A stretch of 58,776 nucleotides of DNA from a virus. Lineage: Duplodnaviria > Caudoviricetes. Under the pieces are notes generated by a model. That model was not told the DNA's origin. It ran no database searches and worked only from the letters and a program-made list of their open reading frames with translations. Of this stretch, positions 1,576 through 55,224 are shown piece after piece. Position numbers and translations under genes: made by a program. Positions within the stretch are counted from its first letter, which is position 1. Every line of letters starts with the position of its first letter. The stretch spans positions 1 to 58,776 of the IMG/VR virus record IMGVR_UViG_3300046167_000328; one strand, 5' to 3'.

Positions 1576-1911
1576 ACTAGTGAGGATTCGAACCTCATAA
1601 CCGTCGTTAGCCATAGTCATTATAGGCTCGTAAAAACGTTTACCTATTTCAGTACTAAACCTGACCTAGTTTCCAGCTATTGTGTGATCGTTAATCGTAT
1701 CTTTCGCTATCGGTTTTCATATTTAGATAGAGCTATATACCGTAAAACTCTACTGTTCGCCAGACATTTCCTAATCGCGGTGCACCACTGCCGCTAAGCC
1801 GGTGCGCGTATTTGTTATTTATTCGCTGGATCTATAAACACATTAGAGGATCTTCGTTAGCTTAACCACTTAAAATACCGTAGCCGTACTAAGCCCTCCA
1901 CCGTGTTTATA
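1575..1911 (-). ncRNA. Putative structured non-coding RNA with three abutting domains and a tRNA-like 3' domain
   Basis: ORF-free; closing stems TATAAACAC/GTGTTTATA (1911-1833), TCCAGC/GCTGGA (1830-1672) and AACTAG/CTAGTT (1671-1575); T-arm GAGG-TTCGAAT-CCTC. Confidence 0.65.
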
Positions 1912-2100
1912 TTACTTACGTCGCCAAGATTTATGCACTAATGCACTAAGCTCTTGACTGACTATCTGTATAGTGTTACCGGTTTTGTGCTCTATTATTG
2001 GTATGTAGCTATAATCTTGCACGGTGCTACACGGTGTACACGTCTTGTAACCATAACCTATCCTAATAGGATGTACTTTTTCTCCACATTTACAATACAT
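1912..2100 (-). CDS. Small C4 zinc-finger protein (DksA/TraR-like spacing)
   Basis: CKCGEKVHPIR...KTCTPCS. Confidence 0.55.
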   Translation of the reverse strand: MYCKCGEKVHPIRIGYGYKTCTPCSTVQDYSYIPIIEHKTGNTIQIVSQELSALVHKSWRRK

Positions 2101-4536: not shown

Positions 4537-4689
4537 TTAAATAGATTCCCAATATAGTTCTTTTTGTTCGTCGCTTAAACCGTAGAGGTTATCTTGACCA
4601 AACATCTCTTGACAGATTTTAGTTCTTCTTTTGTTTTCATTGAAGGATTTTGTTACCTCATCCCACGCTTGTTGATTAGTTAAATACAT
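4537..4689 (-). CDS. Hypothetical early protein (start revised to ATG 4689, MYLTNQQ)
   Basis: The track's upstream start at 4728 lies inside the tRNA-like hairpin; ATG 4689 has the usual A-rich leader. Confidence 0.65.
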   Translation of the reverse strand: MYLTNQQAWDEVTKSFNENKRRTKICQEMFGQDNLYGLSDEQKELYWESI

Positions 4690-4701
4690 AGTTATTAAAT
4701 T

Positions 4702-4745
4702 TAGTAGTCGTTGGTGGAATCGAACCACCTCTAACCTTTACGACT
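4702..4745 (-). ncRNA. tRNA-like minihelix (acceptor stem plus T-arm only)
   Basis: Minus strand AGTCGT-AAAGGTTAGA-GGTGG-TTCGATT-CCACC-A-ACGACT-ACTA. Confidence 0.6.
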
Positions 4746-4761
4746 TAGATACTCGATAGTA

Positions 4762-4989
4762 CTATTGTTCTAGTACTTCTCGAGCGATCACTGGTACACT
4801 TGTACTTGAAGTGTAAGATTTGTACTTGACGAAACACGCCATATTTTCTAATTTATCCTTCATTACTTCCCACACTTTGTCGTGGTTGTAGGTAACTGTT
4901 TTACCATTTTTGAAGTTGACAGTGATTAGTTGGTTTTTACCAATTAGTGATTTTCTGATTACAAATCTTTTTGAAATTAAAGTTGACAT
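4762..4989 (-). CDS. Small early protein, paralog A
   Basis: Shares SKRF..RKSLI, FKNGKT..YNHD and KYKSYTSSTS with 5510-5740. Confidence 0.85.
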   Translation of the reverse strand: MSTLISKRFVIRKSLIGKNQLITVNFKNGKTVTYNHDKVWEVMKDKLENMACFVKYKSYTSSTSVPVIAREVLEQ

Positions 4990-5024
4990 AGTTATTATAT
5001 TTAAAGTTATTAATTATTTACATA

Positions 5025-5058
5025 GTTATTATCAATAGAGTACTGTATTTTGTTTGAA
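5025..5058 (-). promoter_or_regulatory. Early promoter-like motif, copy 5 (variant)
   Basis: + strand gttattatc-N9-ctgtatt-N5-tgaa. Confidence 0.7.
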
Positions 5059-5264
5059 TACGAGTGTACTTTTGTTTATTAGTTAAAAAGTAGTAGAGAG
5101 TTTTACTCTAAGTCTCAGTACTTATAACTTATCTATTAACTCAGAAAGCGTTATCTGGAGCGAAGTTTTAGTTACGTTACCATTTTCAGTACTGATTTAG
5201 CTCGTCTATTACTGCTAAAATATCTGCTTTAGTTACTTGCATAGTTATTAGTTTTTGTTACATA

Positions 5265-5298
5265 GATATTATCAACGAGCGTTCGTATTTTTTTTGTA
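5265..5298 (-). promoter_or_regulatory. Early promoter-like motif, copy 6
   Basis: + strand gatattatc-N9-tcgtatt-N5-tgta. Confidence 0.8.
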
Positions 5299-5368
5299 TA
5301 AAATATATAATATATAAGAGCGATAAGCGCCTAACTAGTATTATCAGCGAAGCGCCGTATTAAGTTCG

Positions 5369-5412
5369 AGTGCTATACACAAAGTGCTATACACTTTTAG
5401 GGGGGGGGGGGG
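5369..5412. repeat. Direct repeat AGTGCTATACAC x2 followed by a G13 tract
   Basis: Seen directly; G run at 5400-5412. Confidence 0.8.
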
Positions 5413-5509
5413 TTATACTTAAGTGTCGCGTAGGACGGAGTCTACTCTTCCGATCATATTTCAAGATCAGGCCAATGCTGTTATCTAGATTATCTTACTA
5501 GCGTAGTAG

Positions 5510-5740
5510 TTAGTCTGTAATTAATACAGATCTAACTATTACTGGAATACTAGTACTACTTGTGTAACTCTTGTACTTTTCCCAACAGTTCATAGCATTT
5601 AGCTTTTCTTTCATAGCTTCATACGCATCGTCATGATTGTACTTCGCAGTCTTTCCATTTTTGAATGTTACTTCAATAATAGTGTTAGTGTTGATTAAAG
5701 ATTTTCTTACTAAGAAGCGTTTTGATTGTAAAGTTTTCAT
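5510..5740 (-). CDS. Small early protein, paralog B (first gene of the minus arm)
   Basis: Clear paralog of 4762-4989. Confidence 0.85.
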   Translation of the reverse strand: MKTLQSKRFLVRKSLINTNTIIEVTFKNGKTAKYNHDDAYEAMKEKLNAMNCWEKYKSYTSSTSIPVIVRSVLITD

Positions 5741-5784
5741 AATGTTTAGAATTTATTTAGTTAATATTATATTTAAATTACATA

Positions 5785-5818
5785 GATATTATCAAGTCGA
5801 CGCCGTATTTTCTTCGAA
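5785..5818 (-). promoter_or_regulatory. Early promoter-like motif, copy 7 (variant)
   Basis: + strand gatattatc-N9-ccgtatt-N5-cgaa. Confidence 0.75.
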
Positions 5819-8820: not shown

Positions 8821-10377
8821 ATGTCAGACAAAATAGTCAAAAACCTAAATTTCGGGGAAGACGCCAAGAATACGGTGTTTAAAGGAATAGAAAAACTAAC
8901 AAAAGCTGTAAGTTCTACTTTAGGAGCTAGTGGTAAGTGTGTAATACTAGAAGATGGTGGTGGTAGGCCTGTTATAACAAAAGACGGTGTAACAGTAGCT
9001 GATTCAATAGTGTTGTTGGACCCTGTAGAAAATATGGGTGCTACACTTTTAAAAGAAGCTGCTAGAAAAACAGTTAAAGAAGCTGGTGACGGTACAACAA
9101 CCGCAACTGTCTTAGCACACTCCATACTTAAGCATGCTTATAAGTTAGATAAAAACTATAACGATAGAGATTTAAAGAACGGCATAAATAACGCTGTTGC
9201 TAAAGTTGTAAAATACTTAGAAAAAAACTCTATACAAGTGACAGGTGATATGATCGACTCTGTAGCTACAATTTCAACAAATAATGATCCTAATCTAGGT
9301 AAGGTTATAGGAGATGCTTTTAGAGCAGTTGGAGAAACTGGAGTTGTTATGATGGAAAAAACTAGTGACTCTGAAACCTATGTAGATATTGTTGACGGTG
9401 TACAATACGATAAAGGAATAACAAACTCTAATTTTGTAACTAATAAATCAACAAAAGAAGCTATACTTGATAATCCATTAGTATTACTAGTAGATTCACC
9501 AATTGATAGCATTAGGCAAATACAATCAGTACTAGAATATGTTATTAAAAACAATAAATCATTATTAATTGTAGCTGACATAGACCAACCAGTTCTATCC
9601 GCTTTAGCGATGAACAAGGTAAAAGGTAATATAAAAGTAAACGTTATTAATGCACCTACTTTTGGTATTAACAAGAAAGACACTTTAATTGACTTATCAA
9701 TGTTAACTGGAGCTACTATTATAAATGAAGACCTTGGAGATGATTTAGATTTAATATCAGTTGATAAACTAGGTGAATGTGTTAAGAGTGTAACAGGAGA
9801 ACAAGACACTATAATACAAATAAAAGAAACACCTGAAGAAGTAAATGAGCTTATTATCAAAATTAAAGAACAGCTTGAAACTGAAAAATCTCCTGCAAAC
9901 GTTATACGACTTGAAACTAGACTTGCACGTTTATCTGCTAAGGTTGCAATTGTTAAGGTTGGAGCGAATTCAGACATTGAACTTAAAGAAAAGACAGATA
10001 GAGTCGAAGACGCAATCTGTGCTACAAAAGCCGCAATTAAAGAAGGTATAATTCCAGGAGGAGGTATTGCACTACTCAACGCGTCTACATATATAAAGGC
10101 TAAAAATAAAGGTGAAGAAGTTTTGCTAGAAGCTATAAAAGCTCCTTATGAAACTATTCTATCAAACGCTGGTTTAGAATTGGTTTATCCTGATAAGAAA
10201 AATAGAGGGTTAAACGTGGTTACAGGTAAAGACGTAAATATGGTACGAGCTGGTATTATAGATCCATTACTGGTTACTAAAAGCGCTTTAAGAAACGCGG
10301 CTTCAGTAGCAACTACTATATTATCTACAGATTGTGTAATTAATAACTTAAGAGTTGGAGATGAAAGCAATAGGTAG
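8821..10377 (+). CDS. groEL: Group I chaperonin GroEL
   Basis: ITKDGVTVA, GDGTTTATVLA, RVEDAICATKAA, PGGG, GIIDP; no GGM tail. Confidence 0.97.
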   Translation: MSDKIVKNLNFGEDAKNTVFKGIEKLTKAVSSTLGASGKCVILEDGGGRPVITKDGVTVADSIVLLDPVENMGATLLKEAARKTVKEAGDGTTTATVLAHSILKHAYKLDKNYNDRDLKNGINNAVAKVVKYLEKNSIQVTGDMIDSVATISTNNDPNLGKVIGDAFRAVGETGVVMMEKTSDSETYVDIVDGVQYDKGITNSNFVTNKSTKEAILDNPLVLLVDSPIDSIRQIQSVLEYVIKNNKSLLIVADIDQPVLSALAMNKVKGNIKVNVINAPTFGINKKDTLIDLSMLTGATIINEDLGDDLDLISVDKLGECVKSVTGEQDTIIQIKETPEEVNELIIKIKEQLETEKSPANVIRLETRLARLSAKVAIVKVGANSDIELKEKTDRVEDAICATKAAIKEGIIPGGGIALLNASTYIKAKNKGEEVLLEAIKAPYETILSNAGLELVYPDKKNRGLNVVTGKDVNMVRAGIIDPLLVTKSALRNAASVATTILSTDCVINNLRVGDESNR

Positions 10378-26393: not shown

Positions 26394-29300
26394 ATGGCTG
26401 AGATTAAAAATACTTTTCTAAAATCCAAAATGAATAAAGATTTGGATGATAGGCTTATACCTAATGGAGAATATCGTGATGCGCAAAACATTTCCGTTGG
26501 TAAATCAGAAGATGCTGACGTAGGTGCGTTAGAAAACATCATAGGTAACTCCACTATAACTGAAGAACTACCTATAGGATATGCTAACTTTGGTGAGATT
26601 ATAGGGTATTTTTCGGACAGTACAAACAATAGGATAATAACTTTTGTAACAAACTATAAAGACCCAAATCCCTCTAGCCCAACTTATTTATCAATTGCTA
26701 ACACTTATAGCCCATCAGGTGATTTTCCTTTGGCTGGAAATTACAAGTCTCACATATGTGTATACGATCAAGACAACCCAGGGTATGTTATAGTAGTTTC
26801 TGGAGATTTTTTAAATTTTTCTACTACGAACAAAGTTTTAGGCGTTAGCTTGATAGAGGACTTACTGTTCTTTACAGATAATAGAAATCAACCTAGAAAG
26901 ATAAACATAAATTTAGCATTAAGTAATTCCAATTACTACACTACCGAAGACACAATATCCGTAGCTAAATACAGTCCTTATGAAGCTATAAGTTTATTAA
27001 AAAAGGTGACTAAAAAAACAACATCTGCCGCTGTTGGTAGCTCTACTATTAATGTTGAAGATACTGACGGAATAGAAGACGGAATGTTTGTTGTCGCTAA
27101 AAACGTAGATAATGTAAATGCTATAGAAGGTTCTGATTTTGTAACTGTAGACAGTACAACTGCCACAACCGTTAATTTAGTTACTCAAGAAGGAGCTACT
27201 ACAGTGCCTGTAGCTTACAATGCTGATATAAGTGACAATGGAATTGTTACTTTTTTAAAATCAACCATGACTAAGGAAGATCCTGCAACTGGTTGGCCAG
27301 GTGACCCTGATCTACTAGAAAGCAGGTACGTAAGATTTTCATATAGATTTAAGTTTGATGACGGAGAAAATTCTATAATGGCTCCTTTCACTCAAATAGC
27401 TTACGTTCCTAAGAAAAAAGGTTATTTTAGAGATGGTGATGAAGATGCTTCTTATAGATCTACCATATTGGAGTTTATGGAAAACGAGATGAACAACATG
27501 GAATTGTTGATACCTCTACCATCTAAAGGAGTTAATCTAGAACAAGAATATAAAATAACAAACCTAGAGATTTTATACAAAGAGTCAGACGCTCTAACTG
27601 TTAAGGTTTTAGAGACGTTACCCATAAGTAGTATACCTTCTTCTGAACTACAAACAAACATATATTCTTACCAGTACCAATCAAGAAAACCTTACAAAAC
27701 TCTGCCTGAATTTGAGACTACTAGAGTTTACGATAAAGTACCTGTTAGAGCCCTATCTCAAGAGACTTCTGGTAATAGAGTTATGTATGGTAATTTCTAT
27801 GATAGATACTCTTCACCCAATTCAATTGACTATTATGTTGGTGCTTTTTCTAAAGAAACTGTCAACTTTGATTCATGGGTAGAATATCCAAATCACACAG
27901 TAAAGCAAAACAGAAATTATCAAGTTGGTTTTATTCTTGCTGATAAGTTTGGTAGACAAACTCCAGTAATACTCTCACCTGTAGATCTAACCTCTCTAGA
28001 CACTGGTAGTAGTGATTTTGTAGGTGGTTCAACTATCTACAATCAATACTATGATGGAAGCACCCAGCCGGTAATTAGAAATTGGTTTGGCGACGCTATA
28101 AAAGTTGTTGTTCAAAACAAAATATCAAATGGTGTAAACGACACAAATAACTTAACACAAGCAGGTCTTTATGCTATTCAGTATCAAGATAGTGCAGCTA
28201 GCGGTATAGGTTTTTCTATATCTTCATCTTCATTGAATAGTTCACAAGATCAATTAACGTTTAACTTAGATTCAAATAACCCAGATAACACCAGTATACC
28301 TAGGGTAGGTGATTATTTAAGAGGTGAATATAGAGATTACGTTAAAGTTACTTCTGTGACAGGAACAATTTCATACACTGCAACAGCTGATGGATCTATA
28401 AGTAAAAGCTATTTACATAAAGATAATCTAACCAATGATATAAAATTTGCTTATATAATAAACCAAGTTGGTTGGTACTCTTACAAAGTTGTTGTAAAGC
28501 AAACTGAACAAGATTATTACAATTGTTATCTACCTGGAATACTTGATGGGTACCCTGACCACACTGGTACTAGTCCTTACCCTAGTAACGAAGATGGTAA
28601 AACTGCTCATGTAGTTTTATTAAATGACAATATAAATAAGATACCTAGAGATTTATCTGAAGTTGGTCCAGATCAAAAACAATATAGAAGTTCTGTGCAG
28701 CTATTTGGTAGAGTTGAAAATAACTCTGGAACATCTAATACGCAGTATTTTCCAGGATCTTCAACAGATACAGCCTCTACAATAGCCACAGCTAATGACT
28801 TAAACATGAGCTTTACCGAGGTAGCTAGTGTTGATAATTTCTATCAATTAGATACAAATCCTCTAATAGCTAGAATATCTACACTGCAACAATCTATAGG
28901 TGTTACAGAAGCTGATATGCTTCCTTTTTTAGCAGTTTATGAAACAGAACCAGTAAACTCTTTATTAGATATATTTTGGGAAACAACTACAACTGGTTTA
29001 ATCTCTGATCTAAACGAAGATATATTAACTGGTTCGGATGCCCCAGTTGGTTTAACAGCTATAAATTTTGAGTTCAATGAGAACCAAAACCCTAATGGTC
29101 TTGGAAACACTACAGGTGCAGCTGACTCTCCATGGATAACTGATTATTTCTATCCACTTTCACCGGAAGGAGCTCAATTAATAGACACTGGACAACCCAA
29201 TCTAACGGTTACAGATAATACCCCTAATACTTTAGACTTTTTTGATATATACCAAGAACAAACTACAGGTGACCCAAACTTCGGTGCTTATAGAGTTAAA

Positions 29301-30887
29301 ATAAATAATAACTATTTAACTTATTTCTCTAACTCGTTCAATATAACCGATACCTATAATTTCTCTTTATCTATAGTTGATAGTGATAGCAATGCTATTA
29401 CTTTTGATTTTACAGGTTCTTTAACTAACATTCAACCTTTTCTTTCGTCTACAACTCCACCAACTTTAACGCCGTCACCACAGGTATTGCCGTTGTTAAC
29501 TACACCGTTTTACGAAGCTCTTGATCCTAACGCTAGCTTCTCAATTGGTAACGTTGGGTTGCCGGCTAATGGATCGTTGAGTCTTAGTAACTTTGGTACA
29601 CAAACAGCTGCGTTTTTAGAATCTGTACCTCCTCCTTACACATTTTTTGGAATGCCTTATTCTACTATTTTGATAAACTCACAAAATGGAAATATCTCAT
29701 GGGGAGGTTTAAAACTCGAAGGCTATTATGAATCTCAAGTAAAAGTAAAAGATGCTTTAACGAGTTATCAAACTACTGGAGGAATATCTTCTCAAGGTGT
29801 TGAGTCAGCTGGAACGTTGACAAGTATAATATATGATCAACCAATAAGAGTTGTACCTGCTGCTTGTAATTTATCTACTAGCTGCCAAGTAAGCGATATT
29901 ATTGGTGGACAAAGAAGTCAAGTGTTTAATCAAGGAAACAACAATGAGTCTTCATTTGGTTGGAGATTTGGCTCACCTCTAGGTGGACTGCCTCCTGGGT
30001 TTGTAGCTACTCAAAGTAATGTTCAAAGTGTATCTTTTGACGGTTTACAATCTGGTACGGTATTGTTTGATTTGATGGTTCAAGCTAGCAAAACTAGTGG
30101 CCTTAATTGTAAAGCTTTATTTAGATGGAGAATATGGAAGAGAGCTAACAGTGGTAGCACTTGGACTACTATGGGCGTTGTAAGTACTAATAGTGTTGAT
30201 TTAAACTCAGACAATGGTAATGTCGGTCTTGGCGCAGGATGGATAGCACCTGCTCAAAGTACTAGATTTACATGTACTAACATTAACCTTGGTACTAATT
30301 CTCAAATACACATACCTATAGCTTTAACACAAAAAGCAGAATACTTTATAGAGTGTAGAGGTTATAGAATAGGTACAGGTGTTGCAGAGTGCTGGATAAA
30401 TGCTGGTGATGCTAATTACCCTACATGTGTTCCAGTCAAAGGCATTAATTTGATAAGTGGTACTGGTAGAGACGCTGATTATTTTCAGTACACAGCAGCG
30501 CTTTTTTCTTCTACTACAGCTCCAAATTCCTGTGCTGCGGCTTTATCTGAAACTGTTTACACTAGAACTCCATACACGCACGTTGTAGAACAATTTTTCT
30601 CAGACACGGCATTAACTACTGGTCAACTAATTGGTTCTTCGCAAACTGATTACACCGCTTATGGTTACGCACCTGATGCTTCAACTACAAACGGTAGCGA
30701 TATAGCTAGTATATATAATGCAAAAGTTATAAGTGTTGTAGATGATCCAAATGATGGTAGAACTAGAAGAGGTTTTATTGAACCTTTTAGTGGTTCAGGT
30801 ATTGGTTCAACTAAAAGACAACCTTGCCTCACTAGCGGTACTTATCAAGACCTTAGATACAGGGTATACTACAATGAAGACTATTAA
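26394..30887 (+). CDS. Tail nozzle/stabilisation protein with S/T/G-rich C-terminal extension
   Basis: MNKDLDDRLIPNGEYRDAQNISV...GALENIIGN and LLFFTDNRNQPRKIN, as in podovirus nozzle proteins. Confidence 0.75.
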   Translation: MAEIKNTFLKSKMNKDLDDRLIPNGEYRDAQNISVGKSEDADVGALENIIGNSTITEELPIGYANFGEIIGYFSDSTNNRIITFVTNYKDPNPSSPTYLSIANTYSPSGDFPLAGNYKSHICVYDQDNPGYVIVVSGDFLNFSTTNKVLGVSLIEDLLFFTDNRNQPRKININLALSNSNYYTTEDTISVAKYSPYEAISLLKKVTKKTTSAAVGSSTINVEDTDGIEDGMFVVAKNVDNVNAIEGSDFVTVDSTTATTVNLVTQEGATTVPVAYNADISDNGIVTFLKSTMTKEDPATGWPGDPDLLESRYVRFSYRFKFDDGENSIMAPFTQIAYVPKKKGYFRDGDEDASYRSTILEFMENEMNNMELLIPLPSKGVNLEQEYKITNLEILYKESDALTVKVLETLPISSIPSSELQTNIYSYQYQSRKPYKTLPEFETTRVYDKVPVRALSQETSGNRVMYGNFYDRYSSPNSIDYYVGAFSKETVNFDSWVEYPNHTVKQNRNYQVGFILADKFGRQTPVILSPVDLTSLDTGSSDFVGGSTIYNQYYDGSTQPVIRNWFGDAIKVVVQNKISNGVNDTNNLTQAGLYAIQYQDSAASGIGFSISSSSLNSSQDQLTFNLDSNNPDNTSIPRVGDYLRGEYRDYVKVTSVTGTISYTATADGSISKSYLHKDNLTNDIKFAYIINQVGWYSYKVVVKQTEQDYYNCYLPGILDGYPDHTGTSPYPSNEDGKTAHVVLLNDNINKIPRDLSEVGPDQKQYRSSVQLFGRVENNSGTSNTQYFPGSSTDTASTIATANDLNMSFTEVASVDNFYQLDTNPLIARISTLQQSIGVTEADMLPFLAVYETEPVNSLLDIFWETTTTGLISDLNEDILTGSDAPVGLTAINFEFNENQNPNGLGNTTGAADSPWITDYFYPLSPEGAQLIDTGQPNLTVTDNTPNTLDFFDIYQEQTTGDPNFGAYRVKINNNYLTYFSNSFNITDTYNFSLSIVDSDSNAITFDFTGSLTNIQPFLSSTTPPTLTPSPQVLPLLTTPFYEALDPNASFSIGNVGLPANGSLSLSNFGTQTAAFLESVPPPYTFFGMPYSTILINSQNGNISWGGLKLEGYYESQVKVKDALTSYQTTGGISSQGVESAGTLTSIIYDQPIRVVPAACNLSTSCQVSDIIGGQRSQVFNQGNNNESSFGWRFGSPLGGLPPGFVATQSNVQSVSFDGLQSGTVLFDLMVQASKTSGLNCKALFRWRIWKRANSGSTWTTMGVVSTNSVDLNSDNGNVGLGAGWIAPAQSTRFTCTNINLGTNSQIHIPIALTQKAEYFIECRGYRIGTGVAECWINAGDANYPTCVPVKGINLISGTGRDADYFQYTAALFSSTTAPNSCAAALSETVYTRTPYTHVVEQFFSDTALTTGQLIGSSQTDYTAYGYAPDASTTNGSDIASIYNAKVISVVDDPNDGRTRRGFIEPFSGSGIGSTKRQPCLTSGTYQDLRYRVYYNEDY

Positions 30888-30922
30888 TGTAATATATTAA
30901 TAAAATAAGTGATAATAAAGAT

Positions 30923-32266
30923 ATGTCAGCAACTTTAGAAGTAAAATATTTCAACTCTTTTTGGATAAAGAAGATAAAGTCAATAGTTGATGCTGCGGAT
31001 AATGTCGTAGAAGACTTAATTCCAGGTGCTTACGCTTCTAGTGATGACAACGATTGGTATATCGAAGAAGCTAGGATAAGAGGCGGTTATAATAATACTT
31101 CTGTAGATTTTGGAGTAAAAGCTTATTTAGTTGAAGAAAATAACCAACAACAACATAGATTTAACTCTATAATATACTCTGGTGTATTTAACTCTAGAAC
31201 TGGTATAAATAGAACTAACGTTTTTTCAGTAGGCGAAGATATAACTAAATCTGCGGATCCTGCTAACGGATCTATACAGAAGCTTTATGCTGAAGACACT
31301 AATTTAATAGTTTTACAAGAAGATAAAGTTAGTAGAGCTTTAATAGATAAAGACGCTATATACTCCGCTGAAGGAAATAGAGCTATAACATCTTCTACAC
31401 AGGTGATAGGAGAAATAGTACCTTATGGTGGTAAGTATGGTATAAGTGATAACCCAGAGTCTTTTGCTGTTTACGGTTATAGAAAGTACTTTACTGATAG
31501 AAAAAGAAATGCTGTTTTAAGGCTGTCTATGGACGGTATAACTGAAATATCATCTTATGGTATGCAAGACTTTTTTAGAGACAATCTAGGTAACTTAAAT
31601 TCATCAGATAATATAATCGGTGCTTGGGACATACATAATAAAAACTATGTAGTATCTATACAAAGAAATAGCGGAGGTGGTAACGGTTACCAAACATTGA
31701 ATTTTGATGAAAGTGTAAACGGTTGGACTAGCTTCTTAAGCTTTGAGCCTGGGTTTATGTTTAGCTTGAATACAGCTTTTTATTCTACTCACCAAGGTAA
31801 GATTTGGCAACATTATACTTTTGATAATCAACTTAGGAGAGCAATTTTTTATGGCGTGATATATCCGTCTTCTGTTGATTTTGTTTTTAACTCTAATCAA
31901 TCATTAGTTAAGAACTTTAAAACAATAAACTACGAAGGTAGTATAGACTGGCAAATGGATTCAATGCAAACTTCATCTGATAGTGCTCTACCTATATCTA
32001 AATCTATAAACATACTTACACAAGCATCGAATTTACAAGATCTAGAAAATCAACTACTACGTAACAACTTTAAAGCAAAAGAAGGTAAATACTTTGCAAA
32101 TATTATAAACAACAGTGTATCTAGAGCTGGTGAGGTTACATGGGGCCAGTCTAGCTCAGGTATTAAAGGTTTCTTCGCTACAGTTTCAATGAGTGTTGAT
32201 AATAATTTACCTGGTAAAAAAGAATTATTCGCCGTTTCTACTGAATACGTAGAGTCGTCATATTAA
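30923..32266 (+). CDS. Second tail stabilisation/nozzle protein
   Basis: GSIQKLYAEDT, YGISDNPESFA, YFTDRKRNAVLRLS, GWTSF beta-propeller-like motifs. Confidence 0.75.
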   Translation: MSATLEVKYFNSFWIKKIKSIVDAADNVVEDLIPGAYASSDDNDWYIEEARIRGGYNNTSVDFGVKAYLVEENNQQQHRFNSIIYSGVFNSRTGINRTNVFSVGEDITKSADPANGSIQKLYAEDTNLIVLQEDKVSRALIDKDAIYSAEGNRAITSSTQVIGEIVPYGGKYGISDNPESFAVYGYRKYFTDRKRNAVLRLSMDGITEISSYGMQDFFRDNLGNLNSSDNIIGAWDIHNKNYVVSIQRNSGGGNGYQTLNFDESVNGWTSFLSFEPGFMFSLNTAFYSTHQGKIWQHYTFDNQLRRAIFYGVIYPSSVDFVFNSNQSLVKNFKTINYEGSIDWQMDSMQTSSDSALPISKSINILTQASNLQDLENQLLRNNFKAKEGKYFANIINNSVSRAGEVTWGQSSSGIKGFFATVSMSVDNNLPGKKELFAVSTEYVESSY

Positions 32267-35259: not shown

Positions 35260-38200
35260 ATGCCAGTAAAAAGATATGAAGTTGACGGTAATCCTTATGA
35301 TGTATCTGATGCCAAAGAACAAGAATTTTTAAGTAAATTTAGTAATGCTGTTTTTATAAATGTTTTAGATGAAGACACTAACGAGTTAGAAGAAACTGTT
35401 GAAACAGTGGAAAAGTTAGACGGTGCTGCAAAAAAGGATGCGGATGTAGTACCAGTAGCAACTCCAAGCAGAGCATCTATAATTGCGGGTGTTCAACCAG
35501 AAGTTACGGAATCACTATCGGTAGATACTTCTTCGGAGTTAGAAGATCCTGAACCTAAAAAATCACAAGAAAGCGGTGAGGTAACTTTAGAGCAGTATAA
35601 AATAATGACTGCTGATCAGAAGAGGAAGTTAAGTTACCGTGACAGGCAAAGGTTACCTAGAGAACTAGCAAAGCAAAAGAAAAAGCTAGAGAACCAAGAT
35701 AGATTAAAAGCCGAGGCAATTGTAGCTGGCAATGTAATAGAAGACAGAATAAAAAATATACCAAAAGAAGACATAGTAGCTGTACAAGCTAATGAGTATT
35801 TTGGACCTATAAAAACCAGAAGCGACAGAACGACTGTAAGTAGAACTATGGTTGGCCAAATGGGTCCAACTGTATCTTTTGAACCCACTTTTGATTCAGA
35901 CGAAAGCTATACTAAATACCTAAAACAAACTTTAGGTGATAAGTATGATCAATACTTAGAATACAATAAAACAAAAGAAATAACACCTCTAAACGATCAA
36001 AACGAGTCTCAATTGAGAGCTATATATGATGAAGCTGAGACAAAGGTCAAAGACAAAGTATACAACAACAGTTTATTCAATGTTTCAGAAGATGTACAAG
36101 AGTACATGGTGGCTAGTCCAAAATTCGCTAGTGGAGCAGAAAGCATAGAAGCTCAAAAGTTTTTAGTTAAAGATCAAGAAGAAACTTTAATAAAAAACAT
36201 TGAAAGTTACAAAACTGCTAAAAAAGAATGGGAGTCTCAAGCTTTGCCGCTTAATAAAGAAATTAAAGATCTTAAGACTCAAATAGATAGATTTACTTTT
36301 TACGCTGAAGGCGCAAGCCAAGAGCAGGCTGATCAATACAATGAACTGATACAAACCTATAACTCTAAAATACAACAATGGGAGGAGAAAGGTTTTAATG
36401 AATTACCGGCTTTTGTAAACTCCCAATACAAACTAGTAAATTCACAGCAAAAGGATTATTCTAAAATGCGTGAAGACTCTAGGAGAGCTTTAATAGACTC
36501 TGATTTATTTGAAAAAAATCTAAAACAAGATTATAGTGCAAGCGCTAGGGTTGGTAGGGTTTTTGATGAGTTTTTTGTACAGTCTACTAGAAACTTTTTA
36601 GACTTAACAGCTGAGTTAGGATTGAAAGGTGCTAAAGCAGCAGGTATAGGCGGATTCACTCCTCTCTCCTTCTTATCAAGCCCAGAAAATTCTGCAAAAG
36701 TAGACTCTGTAATAGAGACAATACAAAAAAATAATAAGAACTACAACTTAAGTATGGCCTCTGAAAGAGAGAACATACCAACATCTCCGTCAATAGATGA
36801 TATAGGTAAAAATGGTTTATCCGTATGGGACTGGACGTCTATAACATTTCAAGATAATTCAGCCACTATAGCTACTACACTTGCGCCAGCACTAGCATCT
36901 TTGAAAGGAGCTTCTGGAGTTAAAGCTGCTTTTAAAACTGCAAGCTATGCTGCTAGGAAAAAAGCTTTGCAAAATCAAAAAAAGCTTTGGTTAGCTGGTA
37001 AAAGAACTGTTCAAGGAACTTTCTTTGTAGCTGAAACAGGTGGTAAATATGGAGAAATGCAAACGGACGAAGCGTCTAGAGAACAAGAAATAAAGTTTTT
37101 ATACTCAAAACTAGATAACACTGAAGACATAGATCAGAAAACTGAAATATATAACAGAATTACTGAACTAGAAGAGGTAGAAGACTACACTCTACTTCAA
37201 AAAGCTTTTACATCTTTTGGAGCTGGAACTACAGCTACGCTTTTTGAGAGTTTAGGTACTTTAAAAATGTTAGAACCAGCTAAAGGTTTAGCTAAGCAAA
37301 TAGGTGTTAAAGCTGCTAAAAAAGAATTATACAAGCAACCAGTTAGATTCGCAGCTAACTTAACAGGCGCAACATTGGCAGGTTTAAAATCTATGCCAAA
37401 GAATATTAGTGGTGAAATAGCAGAAGAAGTACTTACAGAAGTATCTCACAATGGTTTAGATATATTAGTTTTAGATGAAAACAAGTCTATGTTTGAGGGA
37501 ATAAACAAAGATTTTTTAGCAAGTACTGGTTTAAGCACTATTGGTATAATGGGGCCTAAATCAGCTGGTAACGTATTTAACATCATTAAAAGTGAATTTA
37601 GAAGTAAAAGCGAAATATTCAATAACCAGAAATTAGCTAGAGAACTTATAGATCTTAATGAGTCAACAACTCCAGATAATTCAAAACAACTTAGAGGTAG
37701 AAAAAGACAAATATTAAAACAACTAGCGCTTAGCGATGCTATTAGCTTGCATAAGTTAAGGTATATGACAGCAGATCAAATAGAAGAAGTTGCTGACATT
37801 AATAGACAAATGAGGCAAGTTAATGGTAAGTTTAGGCAATTAGGTAATTTAGGTGACTTGGGTGAAGCTGAGAACAAACGAGTTAAAAAACAACTAGAGG
37901 ATGAGTACTCTAGCTTAGCTACCGCTAGGCAAGAACTTCTAGACGCTAAACAAAGATCAAACACTAAGAAGGCTGCAAGCATGAACAAGGCTTTAGGTGA
38001 TGCTGCTCAAAACTCTAACGCTGCTTTTTTATATGGTGTTAATGATTTCTTTAATGAACTCACTATGACTCAAATGGGTGATGGTGATTTTATTTCTATA
38101 GAAAGTGAAATACAAGAAGGTGGTAATATAAAGTACAAAAACCTAGATAAGCAGCTTGCTAAGTATAAAGGCAAAATAGTTAAAGCTATCAACGATGAAA

Positions 38201-41200
38201 CTGGAAAAGAAGTAGATGTTGATGCTTTTGAGTATTTAAAAGAAAACATAGAGAATAACAAGTTTAATGCTACTCAATTATTCGGGGATATTATAGTAAA
38301 CCAAACTGTTATAGATAAAACAATAGCAAGTAAACCAACTGGTACAGATGCTCAGTATGCTGCTATCGCGCCGCTAGAAGAGCTGTTCCATTTAAGTGTA
38401 GCTCAGAAGGGTATAAAGTTTGATACTACAGCTAAAAACGCTGTTCTAGAAGCCGAAAATATACTAAAAGAAAAGAGAGATCTTGGAGTTATTTCTGAAA
38501 AAGACTATAATGGTCTAAAGAAAAGATTTGATCAATATAGAAGTGAAGATAGTAAAGATTTTGACGCTGAAGAATTTATAGCTCAAATGAATAACGCTAT
38601 ATCTTTAGGTGCTATAAACAGATCTGATATAGAATCAGCACCATCATTTAAAAAGTTTTTAAACAACACTATTAGATCCACATTTGGTGATATGTCTTGG
38701 ATGTTGAAGTTAGAAAACTCTGACGATGTTTTTAATCTTGTTAAAAATTTCCAATCAGACGTTTCTAAAGGTGTTACTTTTCAAGCACCTGAAAGAGAAA
38801 AGCTTAAAACATCTCTATCTGAAGATATTCAAAACGAAATAGAAGCACTAGAAGATAGTTATTTTGATGGAGAAATAGATGAGTATCAGTTCGAGCAAAA
38901 GCGCGATAATTTAGATATAAAGCTTAGGCAAGCAGAAGAATCTGAAAAAGCTGAAAAAGCCGCTGCTGTTGAGCAAGTTGAAACTGAAGTAGTAGAAGAT
39001 GTAGACATCAAATCAACAGAGCAAATTAAAAAAATAGATAATATAGTTAAAAAAGCTACTGCGCAAAAACTTGAAGCGCCAAGTATATCTGATAAGAATA
39101 AAAAAATAGCTTCAATTAATGAAGACATTGTAAAAGAAATGACAGCTCTAGGAGCTAATAGAATTTCAGAAATAGAAGATAAAGACATTAGGCAGTCTAT
39201 AGTAGATAGATTAGGTAGAAATAATGTAGGTGCTGTCACAGAGTTAGCAAAAAAAGCAGCTTTTAAAGGTAAAAACTTAGTATTAGATGAAAAACTAAAA
39301 GTAGGTTACGATGAATTTAAAGGAGGTTTTAGCTCGGAGCTATCTTCACTTATAAATTCTTATAAAGCAAATGTTGACGGTAAAGAAGTTCCTTTTGGTG
39401 CTTATATGAACCAAAACCTTCCTCTTAGATACCCTGCAATACTTAGAAGATCTTTAGAAGGTAAACTAAAAAATTCTGAAAGTTTATCTAGTGACAAGAA
39501 TATAAAGAAGGAAGTAGCAAATATCGAAGATGACACTAATCAGTTTGAACTAGGTGGACAAAATGATTCTAGTGAAGTGTTAGAAGTTGATCAGATCGAT
39601 GTAAGAAAGTTTGGACCAGCTAGAGATAAAGTTGATGAAATAGATAAGATAGTACAAGTTGAAGAAGGAGAAAGACCTACGTATAAACAATTAACAAATA
39701 AGTATTTAGACGAAGTATCAATGGAGCTGTTTAATGTTCCAGGTAAGAAAATTAAAGGTGGAGCTACTTTAAAAGATAGTGAAGCTAAATCATTACAAGC
39801 ATTATTTATAAATCCTAATAATGTTAGAAAACTTTTCAAAACAATGCCTCCTTATAATGTTGCTGGTAGTCAAACTACTATAGGTGAGCAGGGTGAGATT
39901 ATTGATGTATCTAAAGATATGAAAGGTGTATCTATAGGATTGTCTAATAAATTTATGAAAAAATTCTATCAGCCAGTTACTAGAGCAATACCCGGTATCT
40001 CTAGTCCAAAAGGTAGAAGTTTAGGTGCTAGTAGTCAAGGACAAGTATATGAATTAAAACCAGAATTTAGAGGTAGAATAACAAACGACGCTATAAAAGA
40101 TATTCAAAGAAGTGTTGGTGTAACTGAAAAAGGTGTTCCGTCTGAAAAAATATCTGATGCTAATAGAAGTAAATATGGTACTACATTAACTGGTTTTGCA
40201 AAAACCTATGTAGCTAACGTTATAAACATTGCGGGTAGATCTAAACAAACCGACAAGCAAGAACAAGCAGATACTGGTGCTGGTAAAGCTAGTATAATGC
40301 TTAGTAAAGCTGATTCAAGTTTCCTTGCTATAACCGGTAAAAATGCTAAAATAGATTTTAATGATAAGAAAATAGTTGAAAAGCTAAAAAAAGATGTGTT
40401 CTCTATACTAGGAAACAAAGAGTTCGATGGCTTTAGTGAAGAAGATTTTGTTAGATATCTACTGCCTTTGGCTACTAAAGGGTATGACTATGGGTTTAAA
40501 ACAGTGGATGGTAAAAAAGTTTTAGTTGAAGACTCTAAAAATACTAGAAACGTAATATTTCAAGGTAGAAAAGACTTCTTTAAGTCTTATAACGAATATA
40601 GAAAAAGCAAAGGTTTAAAAAAGATAACATGGAAACCTAGATTTAGATCTATTACTTTTACAGACTCTTCGGGTAAAAAGAAAACAATAAAGCTAGCTAC
40701 GTTAAAAAATCAATCAGCTGTAGGATTAAACTCAGGTAAATTTATTCAAACACTAGATGATAGAGTTTTAACAGCTCAAGATCAAAGAAATGGTTTAAAG
40801 AGAATTTCAGTAGCTTTAAAGAAGTTTGTTGATGAAAATCCAAATGATGTAACTACTGTACCAATGTTTTTAACTATGTTAAATAGCAACACAGATGGTT
40901 TGGTCAGAACAGCAGCTATACCTAAGTGGATAATGTACAAGGAAGGCTTAAAAGACTCAGACTACGTATATGAACATACTCAAACAGCTTCTGACACTAT
41001 AGTAGAGTTAATGAGGGCTATATACAAAAGTAAAAACAACGCTGAGCTATTGACAGAGTTTGATAATATAATGAAGAACTTTGATGTTGCTATTATTCCT
41101 AAAGAAAACGATATAAAGCTTAATAATAGGTTTAGATATAATGGGCCTAGAGAAGGTGATGTATCAAAAGGAGACTATAAAGTTAAAATTAAATATCCTG

Positions 41201-43377
41201 GAGAAAATGGATTTCCTGTTAGGTATGAAGCAGCTAATAGACTAGATAACGCTGGTATAAAGCTACAATTGCTGTCTGATTTTGCAAATAAAGATACTCA
41301 ATCTAAAGGCACAATAAAACAATCTAAAGCATCTGATCTTAAGTTAAGTAAAGATTTTAACAAGATATTAGAAAACAAATCAGGTATACCTAGTAAAAAG
41401 AAATATGGTATTGTTGAAGCTATAACAAAAGGTGAAAATAAAGGTAGATTTAATTTCTTTATACCTCCTTCAGCAGAAGATTTTGTTGGTTTGTTATATC
41501 CTACTCTTGGTAAAGGTAAAGTTGGTGATGATCAATTAGCTTGGTATAAAGCTAATTTAATAGACCCATTTGCTGAAGCTGTTAACAAGCTTAGTAAAGC
41601 TCGTGTGTATTTAACAAACACTTATAATCAACTTAAAAAGCAATTAGACGTTGTACCTAAGGATTTAGCTAAAAAAATAAAAGGAACAGATTACACTAAA
41701 GAGCAAGCTGTTAGAGTATATATATGGAATAAGCAAAAAATGGATATTCCTGGTATTAGTAAAAGAGATCTTAGTAAGTTAAGTAAGTTTATAGCAGATG
41801 ACGCTAAACTAAAGGCGTTTGCTGATCAACTAATAAACATGCAACTAGGTGATGGTTATGCAAAACCAAAAGAAGGTTGGCCTGCTGGAACTATAACAAC
41901 AGATATACTTGAAGGATTGAACACCGCTAAAAGAGCCAAGTATTTAAAAAATTGGCAATCAAATGTAGACGCTATATTCAGTGATGACAATTTAAATAAG
42001 CTTCAAGCTATATACGGTTTAAATTATAGAAAAGCATTGACTAATATATTAGAAAGGATGAAGACTGGTAGAAATAGAAATTTCCCAGGAGACACTTTAA
42101 CAGGTAGATTTACTGACTGGTTAACTGGTAGTGTTGGTGCAATAATGTTCTTTAATACTAGATCAGCGGTGCTGCAAACAATATCAGCTATAAACTTTAT
42201 AAATTTTAAAGATAATAACATATTCGCAGCCGCTAAAGCATTTGCTAATCAAAAACAATACTGGGCAGACTTTATGACGTTAATGAACTCTGACTTCTTA
42301 AAAGAAAGACGTGGAGGTTTACGTATGAATGTAAACGAAGCAGATATTGCTGACATGGCTAAAAAAGGTGGTGTTAGAGGAGTTATAAGTAAGTTACTAG
42401 AGCTAGGTTTTCTACCTACGCAAATCGCTGATAGTTTTGCAATTGCTTCCGGTGGATCTACTTTCTATAGAAATAGAATTAACACGTACTTAAAACAAAA
42501 GGATGCTAACGGTAATAATTTATATAGTAAAAAATTAGCGGAGAAAAAAGCATTTGAAGATTTTAGAGAAACAGCTGAAGAGTCACAACAGTCGTCTAGA
42601 CCTGATAGAATATCTATGCAACAAGCAAGTTCATTAGGACGTACTGTATTGGCTTTTGCTAACACGCCAGCTCAATATGCTAGAATAATAAAAAAAGCCG
42701 CTAGTGATCTTAAGAATGGCCGAGGGGATCGTAAAGAAAACATATCTAAGATAATTTATTACGGAGTAGCTCAAAACCTTATATTTAACGCTTTACAGCA
42801 AGCTTTATTTGCTCTTGCTTTTAGCGACGAAGAACCTGAAGATGAGAAGAAAGAAGAGAAGTACTTGAACATAGCTAACGGCATGTTAGATTCAATACTT
42901 AGAGGTACTGGAGTTGGTGGTGCTATTGTAACTGTTGGTAAAAACACACTTATCAAAATGGCTAAAGAACTTAAAAAAGACAGGCCTCAACTTAAGAACA
43001 TAGCTCTTGAAGCAGCTAAAATATCTCCTCCTTTAGCGGCAAAATTATCTAGGTTACAACAAGCAGGTAGATCTTATGATTGGAACAAAGAAGAGATGAG
43101 GACAAGAGGTTTAAGTTTAGATAACCCTGCTTTTTTAGCTGGCGCTAATGTTGTTACAGCTTTAACAAATATACCTCTTGACAGAGCTATTAAAAAAGCT
43201 AACAATGTTGTTTCCGCTACTTCACAAGACCTTGAAACCTGGGAACGTATAGGTTTACTTGGAGGTTGGCAAGACTGGGAGTTAGGTATTGACAAAAAAG
43301 ATAAAAAAGAAAAGAAAAAACCAAGTAAAATTACAAGAAAAAAAGGAGTAATTAGAAAAAGAGTAACAAGAAAGTAG
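35260..43377 (+). CDS. Giant multidomain ejection/internal virion protein (2705 aa)
   Basis: Size, position after two ejection genes, helical C-terminal region; internal zincin-like, sigma-2-like and HNH-like segments. Confidence 0.8.
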   Translation: MPVKRYEVDGNPYDVSDAKEQEFLSKFSNAVFINVLDEDTNELEETVETVEKLDGAAKKDADVVPVATPSRASIIAGVQPEVTESLSVDTSSELEDPEPKKSQESGEVTLEQYKIMTADQKRKLSYRDRQRLPRELAKQKKKLENQDRLKAEAIVAGNVIEDRIKNIPKEDIVAVQANEYFGPIKTRSDRTTVSRTMVGQMGPTVSFEPTFDSDESYTKYLKQTLGDKYDQYLEYNKTKEITPLNDQNESQLRAIYDEAETKVKDKVYNNSLFNVSEDVQEYMVASPKFASGAESIEAQKFLVKDQEETLIKNIESYKTAKKEWESQALPLNKEIKDLKTQIDRFTFYAEGASQEQADQYNELIQTYNSKIQQWEEKGFNELPAFVNSQYKLVNSQQKDYSKMREDSRRALIDSDLFEKNLKQDYSASARVGRVFDEFFVQSTRNFLDLTAELGLKGAKAAGIGGFTPLSFLSSPENSAKVDSVIETIQKNNKNYNLSMASERENIPTSPSIDDIGKNGLSVWDWTSITFQDNSATIATTLAPALASLKGASGVKAAFKTASYAARKKALQNQKKLWLAGKRTVQGTFFVAETGGKYGEMQTDEASREQEIKFLYSKLDNTEDIDQKTEIYNRITELEEVEDYTLLQKAFTSFGAGTTATLFESLGTLKMLEPAKGLAKQIGVKAAKKELYKQPVRFAANLTGATLAGLKSMPKNISGEIAEEVLTEVSHNGLDILVLDENKSMFEGINKDFLASTGLSTIGIMGPKSAGNVFNIIKSEFRSKSEIFNNQKLARELIDLNESTTPDNSKQLRGRKRQILKQLALSDAISLHKLRYMTADQIEEVADINRQMRQVNGKFRQLGNLGDLGEAENKRVKKQLEDEYSSLATARQELLDAKQRSNTKKAASMNKALGDAAQNSNAAFLYGVNDFFNELTMTQMGDGDFISIESEIQEGGNIKYKNLDKQLAKYKGKIVKAINDETGKEVDVDAFEYLKENIENNKFNATQLFGDIIVNQTVIDKTIASKPTGTDAQYAAIAPLEELFHLSVAQKGIKFDTTAKNAVLEAENILKEKRDLGVISEKDYNGLKKRFDQYRSEDSKDFDAEEFIAQMNNAISLGAINRSDIESAPSFKKFLNNTIRSTFGDMSWMLKLENSDDVFNLVKNFQSDVSKGVTFQAPEREKLKTSLSEDIQNEIEALEDSYFDGEIDEYQFEQKRDNLDIKLRQAEESEKAEKAAAVEQVETEVVEDVDIKSTEQIKKIDNIVKKATAQKLEAPSISDKNKKIASINEDIVKEMTALGANRISEIEDKDIRQSIVDRLGRNNVGAVTELAKKAAFKGKNLVLDEKLKVGYDEFKGGFSSELSSLINSYKANVDGKEVPFGAYMNQNLPLRYPAILRRSLEGKLKNSESLSSDKNIKKEVANIEDDTNQFELGGQNDSSEVLEVDQIDVRKFGPARDKVDEIDKIVQVEEGERPTYKQLTNKYLDEVSMELFNVPGKKIKGGATLKDSEAKSLQALFINPNNVRKLFKTMPPYNVAGSQTTIGEQGEIIDVSKDMKGVSIGLSNKFMKKFYQPVTRAIPGISSPKGRSLGASSQGQVYELKPEFRGRITNDAIKDIQRSVGVTEKGVPSEKISDANRSKYGTTLTGFAKTYVANVINIAGRSKQTDKQEQADTGAGKASIMLSKADSSFLAITGKNAKIDFNDKKIVEKLKKDVFSILGNKEFDGFSEEDFVRYLLPLATKGYDYGFKTVDGKKVLVEDSKNTRNVIFQGRKDFFKSYNEYRKSKGLKKITWKPRFRSITFTDSSGKKKTIKLATLKNQSAVGLNSGKFIQTLDDRVLTAQDQRNGLKRISVALKKFVDENPNDVTTVPMFLTMLNSNTDGLVRTAAIPKWIMYKEGLKDSDYVYEHTQTASDTIVELMRAIYKSKNNAELLTEFDNIMKNFDVAIIPKENDIKLNNRFRYNGPREGDVSKGDYKVKIKYPGENGFPVRYEAANRLDNAGIKLQLLSDFANKDTQSKGTIKQSKASDLKLSKDFNKILENKSGIPSKKKYGIVEAITKGENKGRFNFFIPPSAEDFVGLLYPTLGKGKVGDDQLAWYKANLIDPFAEAVNKLSKARVYLTNTYNQLKKQLDVVPKDLAKKIKGTDYTKEQAVRVYIWNKQKMDIPGISKRDLSKLSKFIADDAKLKAFADQLINMQLGDGYAKPKEGWPAGTITTDILEGLNTAKRAKYLKNWQSNVDAIFSDDNLNKLQAIYGLNYRKALTNILERMKTGRNRNFPGDTLTGRFTDWLTGSVGAIMFFNTRSAVLQTISAINFINFKDNNIFAAAKAFANQKQYWADFMTLMNSDFLKERRGGLRMNVNEADIADMAKKGGVRGVISKLLELGFLPTQIADSFAIASGGSTFYRNRINTYLKQKDANGNNLYSKKLAEKKAFEDFRETAEESQQSSRPDRISMQQASSLGRTVLAFANTPAQYARIIKKAASDLKNGRGDRKENISKIIYYGVAQNLIFNALQQALFALAFSDEEPEDEKKEEKYLNIANGMLDSILRGTGVGGAIVTVGKNTLIKMAKELKKDRPQLKNIALEAAKISPPLAAKLSRLQQAGRSYDWNKEEMRTRGLSLDNPAFLAGANVVTALTNIPLDRAIKKANNVVSATSQDLETWERIGLLGGWQDWELGIDKKDKKEKKKPSKITRKKGVIRKRVTRK

Positions 43378-54462: not shown

Positions 54463-55224
54463 TTAAAGATAGTCAAGCACTTGCGAGTGGTCTACGCTAT
54501 CAATTAATTTTTCTACAGCAGACTTTTTTAGCTCAGAAACTCTTACATAAGAGCTTGTACCTTTTATCTCTAGTATTTCTGCTATTTTTTTTGCAGGTAA
54601 TTTATCACAGTCTAAACCATAAGATAATCTTAATACTTCGTACTCTAAATTGTTTAAGTGTTTTTGCATTAAACCTTTTAGATACAAATTAAGTAGCTGT
54701 ATATTATACGGCTCTGATTTGTCTGGTATTTGGTACATAGTATTTTCTTCATCATCATTAAGTTGCTGAGAGTCTATTGATAAAAATATAGAGTTAAAAA
54801 ACATAGAAACCATTTTCTTGTCTTTAGGATTTTTACGTATCTCATTTAGTTTATGTTCTGGTATACGTATATCTCCTCTGTTGATGTCTATACGTCTTCT
54901 AATGGCTCCTTTTATACGTTTAGACAGAAAGCTTTTTAATGTTTTTTCCGTGTCGTTAGATTCCATAAGTCTAGACATTTCTAATTTATCAACAGCTCTT
55001 GTCAATGCTTCATTACCTATTTGAATTAGATCATTTATAGATAAAACACCTGAAGCTTGTTGTGATGTAGAAAACTTACGTGCTAAATTTTCAACTAAAG
55101 GTAAAAACTTAACTATCAACTCATCTCTAGTATATTCGTCCCAAAACTTACCTTCGATATTCATTATAGATGTTTTAACATCTTCTTTATATCTTATGTA
55201 GTTCTGTATATTATATTTCTTCAT
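54463..55224 (-). CDS. Sigma-70 family RNA polymerase sigma factor
   Basis: Region 2 LPLVENLARKF...DLIQIGNEALTRAVDK...RIKGAI; IRIP; region 4 EVLRLSYGL...KIAEIL...RVSELKKSAVEKL. Confidence 0.9.
   Translation of the reverse strand: MKKYNIQNYIRYKEDVKTSIMNIEGKFWDEYTRDELIVKFLPLVENLARKFSTSQQASGVLSINDLIQIGNEALTRAVDKLEMSRLMESNDTEKTLKSFLSKRIKGAIRRRIDINRGDIRIPEHKLNEIRKNPKDKKMVSMFFNSIFLSIDSQQLNDDEENTMYQIPDKSEPYNIQLLNLYLKGLMQKHLNNLEYEVLRLSYGLDCDKLPAKKIAEILEIKGTSSYVRVSELKKSAVEKLIDSVDHSQVLDYL

Follow-up and report, generated by a model that had tools for sequence, protein, structure and literature searches.

A giant open reading frame (ORF) of a marine flavobacterial-type phage, in the IMG/VR virus record IMGVR_UViG_3300046167_000328 (58,776 bp, estimated 91% complete; "the window" below, meaning the whole stretch of DNA analysed) encodes a modular protein of 2705 amino acids (aa), within which we find a real, very divergent sigma2-like module. 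Our best explanation, held tentatively, is that residues ~1278-1405 form a very divergent sigma2 domain of the sigma-70 family, covering regions 1.2 to 2.4, that the giant protein carrying it is packaged and ejected, and that the domain serves as a minimal sigma factor for early transcription. An injected sigma module is plausible; packaging, ejection, promoter specificity, timing and sigma activity are the elements of this explanation that we infer. The argument depends on the following features.

35260..43377, plus strand: giant ORF, 2705 aa (ORF translation)
Residues 1187-1687, plus strand: module B of the giant protein, which splits into B1 (1187-1445) and B2 (1446-1687)
38971..39090, plus strand: charged low-confidence linker before the domain (residues 1238-1277), with predicted local distance difference test (pLDDT) values below 50 in a 540-aa model
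39091..39474, plus strand: sigma2-like domain (residues ~1278-1405), supported by an AlphaFold2 (AF2) model, VIA-align, hhalign and a complex model
39190..39460, plus strand: conserved core of the sigma2-like domain (residues 1311-1400), from conservation in its superfamily
39475..39594, plus strand: low-confidence linker after the domain (residues 1406-1445), pLDDT ~58 or lower in a 161-aa model
39595..40320, plus strand: B2, a predicted alpha/beta domain (residues 1446-1687), pLDDT 80-90 in the 540-aa model
Predicted helices of the domain: residues 1278-1296 (1.2-like); 1308-1321 and 1323-1338 (2.1-like); 1350-1367 (2.2-like); 1379-1405 (2.3/2.4-like)

A first AF2 model, covering residues 1181-1720 (540 aa) from a shallow alignment, resolved B2 well and the sigma-like part poorly (pLDDT about 40-65, falling below 50 at model positions 58-97 and 210-264, residues 1238-1277 and 1390-1444). 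Its N-terminal helical hairpin swamped the Foldseek and VIA-align comparisons, and the VIA-align result was a mixed list of unrelated helical hairpins. A second, template-free model of residues 1265-1425 (161 aa), built on a checked alignment of 34 rows, reached a mean pLDDT of 86.5 and a predicted template-modelling score (pTM) of 0.77, with helices at model positions 14-32, 44-57, 59-74, 86-103 and 115-141. Compared by VIA-align with 48,161 representative PDB chains, this model returned sigma factors or sigma-bearing complexes at all of ranks 1-19, the chain in rows that are complexes being judged by its length and letter rather than by a chain-level name. The leading rows read as follows, with the values in the order of the VIA-align output.

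8hkc_E, sigma32: 9.1; 3.6; 100
8x6g_H, SigB: 9.1; 2.8; 91
5h6x_B, RpoS region 1.2 and region 2: 8.8; –; 95/96
8b3z_A, SigE N-terminal domain: 8.7; –; 80/80
4x8k_A, SigA domain 2: 8.5

At rank 20 stands an engineered scaffold whose residues are numbered as in a sigma domain-2 entry, and which presumably derives from sigma. The preliminary description had proposed fold prediction as a check on its sigma region-2 assignment, and the VIA-align ranking bears that assignment out, though Foldseek gave no match against the PDB at E<=1e-3. The three highest Foldseek probabilities there nevertheless belonged to sigma entries (9a4r_A, 0.66; 6n60_F, 0.38; 8r6r_F, 0.28), the "RPSH" of 9a4r being, we assume from the UniProt mnemonic, sigma-H. 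In BFVD, four of the five named rows with a probability of at least 0.75 were phage sigma factors, with no row at E<=1e-3. As modelled, the domain is a sigma2 fold in which a region 1.2 helix packs on helices 2.1-2.4.

Positions 39190-39460 translate to RQSIVDRLGRNNVGAVTELAKKAAFKGKNLVLDEKLKVGYDEFKGGFSSELSSLINSYKANVDGKEVPFGAYMNQNLPLRYPAILRRSLE, which is residues 1311-1400 of the giant protein and reads as it had originally been quoted. An exhaustive HMMER search with residues 1181-1720 found 122 representatives at E<=1e-3, some with B1 only and many with B2 only, and B1 was present in 57 of the 235 relatives compared, at identities down to about 30%. The B1 consensus runs L..NN.g.V..LAkKAA, followed by ~10-17 residues, (D/E)(E/D)F.sG(F/Y)..eL..L..tYkP, a short loop and pFGAYMn..LPlRYg.IL. 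Across the wider superfamily defined below, the conserved positions are L1318, N1322, L1329, A1333, D1343, L1361, L1364, Y1368, F1379, Y1382, L1387, R1390 and I1394; they include the aromatics equivalent to those of the sigma FSTY string, with conservation of 0.70 for F1379 and of 0.93 for Y1382 counted as Y/F/W.

For profile comparisons, we used a reference alignment of 30 sigma ORFs from three Bacteroidota metagenome-assembled genomes (MAGs), which replaced an alignment of the sigma factor that the phage itself encodes (11 sequences, mutually 79-93% identical, too narrow a profile). With hhalign, the 57-sequence B1 family aligned to the 30 Bacteroidota sigma factors over 74 columns, from region 2.1 to 2.4 (P 0.011, prob 4%). 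A hidden Markov model (HMM) built from the sigma ORFs gave weak matches immediately before B2 in proteins devoid of B1, and the domain variants found upstream of B2 in relatives show more canonical region-2.3 strings (RYDPSESKFSTYV, SYKPGDSKFSTWVYNNI, RYDPSESKFSTYVTNT and RFDPKRNNSLYGWINSQ). Iterated HMM searches linked 55 of 81 such upstream-of-B2 windows to the B1 family and produced a superfamily of 113 sequences; iterated profiles are prone to drift, and inspection of the core alignment found its motif columns consistent. The superfamily scored 30.4 against the 30 sigma factors (P 1.6e-4, prob 50.5%, 72 columns), compared with 11.7 for the reversed sigma profile, 17.7 for B2 against sigma and at most 12.4 for column shuffles (n=100). 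The resemblance to sigma region 2 exceeds chance, and we grade this profile-level similarity, which falls in the right register, as moderate.

Sigma70_r2 (PF04542) was also the Pfam family matched by the largest number of members of a 27-row domain alignment (4/27 at E<=10, best E 0.0021), other Pfam families matching two members at most. Relatives P0211 (E 0.027, 14.7 bits) and P0224 (E 0.26) matched it in the expected register. A domain-profile search of PDB sequences yielded 12 weak matches, three of them to sigma-70/RpoD (E 0.58, 1.7 and 3.9) and nine unrelated.

The domain has a regular partner. Among 118 proteins that could be judged, 92 carry a sigma2-like domain directly upstream of B2 (37 of B1 type, plus the 55 of 81 linked by iterated HMM). 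B2 itself, found in 146 of the 235 relatives compared, is rich in conserved and in many cases invariant glycine, proline, lysine and arginine. No fold or family match for B2 emerged from Foldseek or VIA-align with the hairpin-swamped 540-aa model, and ESM Atlas gave no usable match.

To model contact with RNA polymerase, the domain alignment was combined with 170 aa of beta' that include the clamp helices; this fragment came from a Flavobacteriaceae MAG, a stand-in for the host. The runs scored 0.80, 0.77 and 0.75 (median 0.77), against 0.01 for the best of three controls; the score mark was attained in 58 of 80 solved complexes, compared with 2 of 110 mismatched pairs. At least 92% of contacts recur between the runs, and partner pLDDT is at least 77. 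In the modelled interface, residues 58-105 of the beta' fragment, the clamp helices, face domain residues 1312-1323, 1351-1366 and 1397-1410, so that the domain side consists of the 2.1/2.2-like helices. Real sigma factors bind beta' through the same 2.1/2.2 surface. Because sigma-beta' complexes have already been solved, a passing score may reflect likeness rather than binding; with this reading of the score in mind, the domain may dock on flavobacterial beta' clamp helices via its 2.1/2.2-like helices. Modelling with the clamp helices had likewise been suggested in the preliminary description, whose sigma region-2-like domain is now backed by the predicted fold, the hhalign superfamily score and the beta' complex model.

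The phage also encodes a separate, ordinary sigma factor, as had been claimed, and carries a cluster of repeated motifs.

54463..55224, minus strand: sigma factor of 253 aa (Pfam 24.1 bits against a cut-off of 24)
4686..5791, plus strand: six ACATAGWTATTA motifs, candidate promoters or regulatory sites (motif count against shuffles)

A six-frame search of the record for Sigma70_r2 (E<=10) had its only match at 54889-55119 on the minus strand (23.8 bits), inside the 253-aa sigma gene, and some relatives carry PF04542 or PF04545. The family of this sigma is very large: of 8000 candidates scored, all 8000 matched at E<=1e-3, and those listed show 79% identity or more. The ACATAGWTATTA motif has nine matches in the window where 2.42 are expected, a count reached in 0/100 shuffles. 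The six clustered copies (five exact, one with 1 mismatch) are often extended to TTACATAGWTATTATCAA, with CGTATTT about 10 nt later. They occupy a 1.9-kb stretch that has no ORF of 80 aa or more and separates the minus-strand gene block from the plus-strand one, ahead of the latter. The cluster recurs in a relative (G004; 4 copies, 415-1058). The preliminary description had spoken of ten early promoters; the plus-strand cluster of six comprises candidate promoters or regulatory sites and is a candidate target of the sigma2-like domain.

The remainder of the giant protein is made of modules whose boundaries were drawn from BLASTP of 120 listed homologues.

Residues 1-1200, plus strand: module A (BLASTP boundaries, 120 relatives listed)
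Residues ~1700-2000, plus strand: module C, a variable region (BLASTP boundaries)
41272..43329, plus strand: module D (residues 2005-2690), the universal C-terminal module, found by BLASTP in 120/120 listed relatives
38377..38391, plus strand: EELFH in module A (residues 1040-1044), at a column where 15 of 83 relatives read HExxH (HELFH)

Homologues are numerous (1638 at E<=1e-3 among 7999 scored candidates). Module D occurs in all 120 listed homologues and region 1200-1450 in about 32-39 of them. The most hydrophobic stretch of the protein, residues 2503-2521, lies in module D. Searches of the whole giant protein against Pfam (E<=10) and PHROGs gave no relevant match, blastn and tblastn against 50,697 phage records gave none, phmmer of the giant protein and of residues 1181-1720 against PDB chains returned nothing real, and a scan of genome contigs with module D found no match. 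For residues 1690-2705, ESM Atlas returned viral hypothetical clusters only, plus a lead to LPD39 at 0.88. Eight relatives (P0080, P0082, P0083, P0088, P0099, P0108, P0111 and P0113) have Zeta_toxin (PF06414) and AAA_33 (PF13671) between conserved modules, an arrangement that fits a cargo of exchangeable effector modules. In module A, a conserved D.EE stands at residues 1102-1105, ~62 residues downstream of EELFH. To judge by its sequence, EELFH is a possible degenerate zincin-like motif; module A might hold a zincin-like peptidase in which Glu possibly stands in for the first His, and which could process the giant protein.

The surroundings of the giant gene bear on its packaging. Terminase, portal, a capsid-type protein and ring-type virion proteins are encoded in the structural block near it, and two ORFs of one crAss-type family stand upstream.

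26394..32266, plus strand: two ORFs of one crAss-type muzzle/virion protein family, both with phrog_14478 matches, upstream of the giant gene

The second of these (30923-32266) carries crAss_MUZ_C (PF25729, E 7.7e-11). ORFs 26394-30887 and 30923-32266 match separate parts of phrog_14478 (profile positions 1-184 and 921-1265), and the muzzle-type protein may be split or rearranged in this phage. The muzzle-type ORFs are followed by three small ORFs, the giant gene and an M15 peptidase endolysin. On the minus strand, replication genes form a block with the sigma gene. In PhiCrAss001, according to PMC10172136, the post-muzzle genes encode cargo and RNA-polymerase-associated proteins, and mass spectrometry of virions detected all of them.

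A tblastn search with the portal matched 87 records, none of which reaches 60% identity, and placed phages of Flavobacterium, Cellulophaga, Tenacibaculum and Maribacter nearest among cultured ones; portal identity to the listed Flavobacterium elemo phages is 42%. Flavobacterium phage elemoA (MT497017.1, 50563-61647) encodes a 3694-aa "structural protein" in syntenic position to the giant gene, for which no HMM similarity to any module of the giant protein was detected. Since the elemoA protein occupies the same position without such similarity, the slot of the giant gene is conserved and its content is not. The window phage also encodes GroEL (8821-10377), whose close relatives are 47-72% identical and sit on contigs binned to Flavobacteriaceae, Sphingobacteriales, Dehalococcoidia and archaea MAGs, one of them on a 117-kb Flavobacteriaceae contig. 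GroEL-bearing contigs in such disparate MAGs are probably mis-binned phage contigs.

Taken as a mechanism, our best explanation would run as follows. The giant protein would be packaged and ejected together with the phage DNA. The sigma2-like module, alone or with the adjoining B2, would use its 2.1/2.2-like helices to dock on core RNA polymerase of the flavobacterial host, at the beta' clamp helices, and the docked module would act as a minimal sigma, like T4 gp55, to start immediate-early phage transcription. A later role would fall to the 253-aa sigma encoded by its own gene. A broader version, that a large and abundant lineage of marine Flavobacteriia-type podoviruses uses the sigma2 module of an ejected giant protein to turn host core RNA polymerase phage-specific at DNA entry, with B2 replacing sigma4, seems to us possible and somewhat doubtful.

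Several observations weigh against the sigma assignment or against a minimal sigma delivered by the virion. The tryptophan pair of region 2.3 is absent, the aligned positions being Q1385 and N1386 (mapped to E. coli numbering), and regions 2.3/2.4 are altogether less sigma-like than 2.1/2.2. Neither Sigma70_r4 nor any helix-turn-helix family was found in the giant protein (Pfam, E<=10), so that no sigma4 was identified. The window's own copy of the domain had no Sigma70_r2 match at E<=10, whether the whole protein, residues 1201-1700 or the domain was searched, and the Pfam gathering cut-off for this family (24 bits) was reached by no copy, in the window or in relatives. BLASTP against the phage's own 253-aa sigma gave no match; hhalign against the narrow own-sigma alignment found the right register, but at E 0.15. 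When the HMM from the 30 sigma ORFs was run over the 235 relatives, no B1-type domain appeared among the best 35 rows. The phage has a complete sigma of its own. Finally, we infer packaging from gene order, namely from the crAss-type muzzle genes upstream and from the syntenic elemoA "structural protein", which shares no detectable similarity.

Some of these points would suit a different use of this fold and of the beta' contact modelled for it. The domain might bind the beta' clamp helices only, as a mimic of sigma devoid of promoter specificity, and either displace host sigma, causing host shut-off, or tether the polymerase to the ejection complex and the entering DNA, for example aiding genome pull-in. 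The missing tryptophan pair, the weaker resemblance in regions 2.3/2.4, the lack of a sigma4 and the phage's own complete sigma all favour such a mimic, and the conserved FSTY-equivalent string (F1379, Y1382) favours a minimal sigma. Considered over all possibilities the mimic is rather unlikely; once the beta' clamp helices are engaged, it and the minimal sigma are about equally open. The domain could also be a sigma2-shaped helical element whose function has nothing to do with RNA polymerase, for instance a structural or DNA-binding component of an ejection or internal protein, its likeness to sigma being very old or convergent. We regard this as improbable: sigma factors fill all of the first 19 VIA-align ranks among 48,161 chains, the motifs agree in register across regions 2.1-2.4, and the modelled interface involves the same helices with which real sigma factors contact beta'. 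That a linker outside any domain merely resembles sigma by chance, as the weakness of the likeness by eye and the blank single-sequence searches might suggest, is very hard to reconcile with a domain kept in 57 of 235 relatives even at identities near 30%, with a confident fold (pLDDT 86.5) and with the shuffle controls, and we give it hardly any weight.

The position of the gene, where crassviruses encode virion cargo and their virion polymerase, raises a further alternative: the giant protein might also contain a polymerase that has gone unrecognised and for which this domain recognises promoters, so that the whole would be a virion RNA polymerase with its sigma built in. Modules A, C and D, which have no assigned fold, would leave room for such a polymerase. 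However, a regular-expression search for DxDxD found only the near match DFDAE at residue 1100, the first D of which is kept in only 25 of 83 relatives; PDB sequence and whole-protein profile searches revealed no similarity to solved polymerases, and in the profile search module A, which looks like long helices, gave weak SMC-type coiled-coil matches. With no conserved DxDxD and no PDB polymerase match by profile, a virion polymerase is unlikely, and a polymerase with built-in sigma is quite improbable. The reading of the giant protein as a virion RNA polymerase was itself rejected for its lack of a conserved DxDxD.

If the giant protein is delivered with the DNA, as our best explanation has it, the domain would reveal a new means by which phages seize transcription, and would account for the absence of a virion polymerase from these crAss-related phages. 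Full-text literature searches, limited to main texts and with thin coverage of subscription journals, turned up no account of a sigma domain that is packaged in virions or embedded in a giant protein. Known sigma factors are free subunits produced within the cell. The novelty would lie in the architecture that holds the sigma2 domain and in the mode of delivery proposed for it. Sigma-like modules of this kind escape standard annotation, Pfam, PHROGs and PDB sequence searches all being blank; the domain with B2 is a compact object, a fragment of about 130-420 residues, from a large family (1638 relatives).

Relative to the sigma2 domain of sigma-70 (PF04542), the phage domain has the same helix order and packing in the model, shares the motif register N..V..LAkk, D/E-F..G...L..L...Y.P and F-G/S-A/T-Y, and makes the modelled beta' clamp-helix contact through 2.1/2.2-like helices. 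It differs in falling below the Pfam cut-off, in having ~10 extra residues between helices 2.1 and 2.2, in lacking the tryptophan pair, sigma3 and sigma4, and in being embedded at residue ~1300 of 2705 aa rather than forming a free subunit of 20-70 kDa. A sigma consisting of sigma2 only is known in T4 gp55. Late sigmas of the gp55 type are small and free, are made during infection for late genes and need gp33 and the sliding clamp, whereas the phage domain lies within a giant protein of the structural block and would act first, not last.

The giant protein also resembles the polyvalent proteins of phages and conjugative elements (Iyer et al. 2017) in being a multidomain giant whose modules are shuffled between relatives, in the Zeta_toxin/AAA_33 domains of some relatives and in the HExxH-type motif of part of the family (EELFH here). 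Delivered proteins that "jump-start transcription" are a theme of that paper (PMC5512222), in whose main text the word "sigma" has 0 occurrences. Unlike them, the giant protein matched no LPD Pfam family, the ESM Atlas lead to LPD39 (0.88) being the only pointer.

Among crAss-like phages, phi14:2 gp66 is a virion RNA polymerase. With such polymerases (PhiCrAss001 gp47/49/50, phi14:2 gp66, N4) the giant gene shares its place after the tail and muzzle genes, and presumably the logic of carrying the means of early transcription in the particle. It differs in having no DxDxD and no detectable similarity to solved polymerases, and its module would borrow the host core enzyme, not replace it. If true, this would make it a third immediate-early strategy, beside use of the host holoenzyme and injection of a complete virion polymerase.

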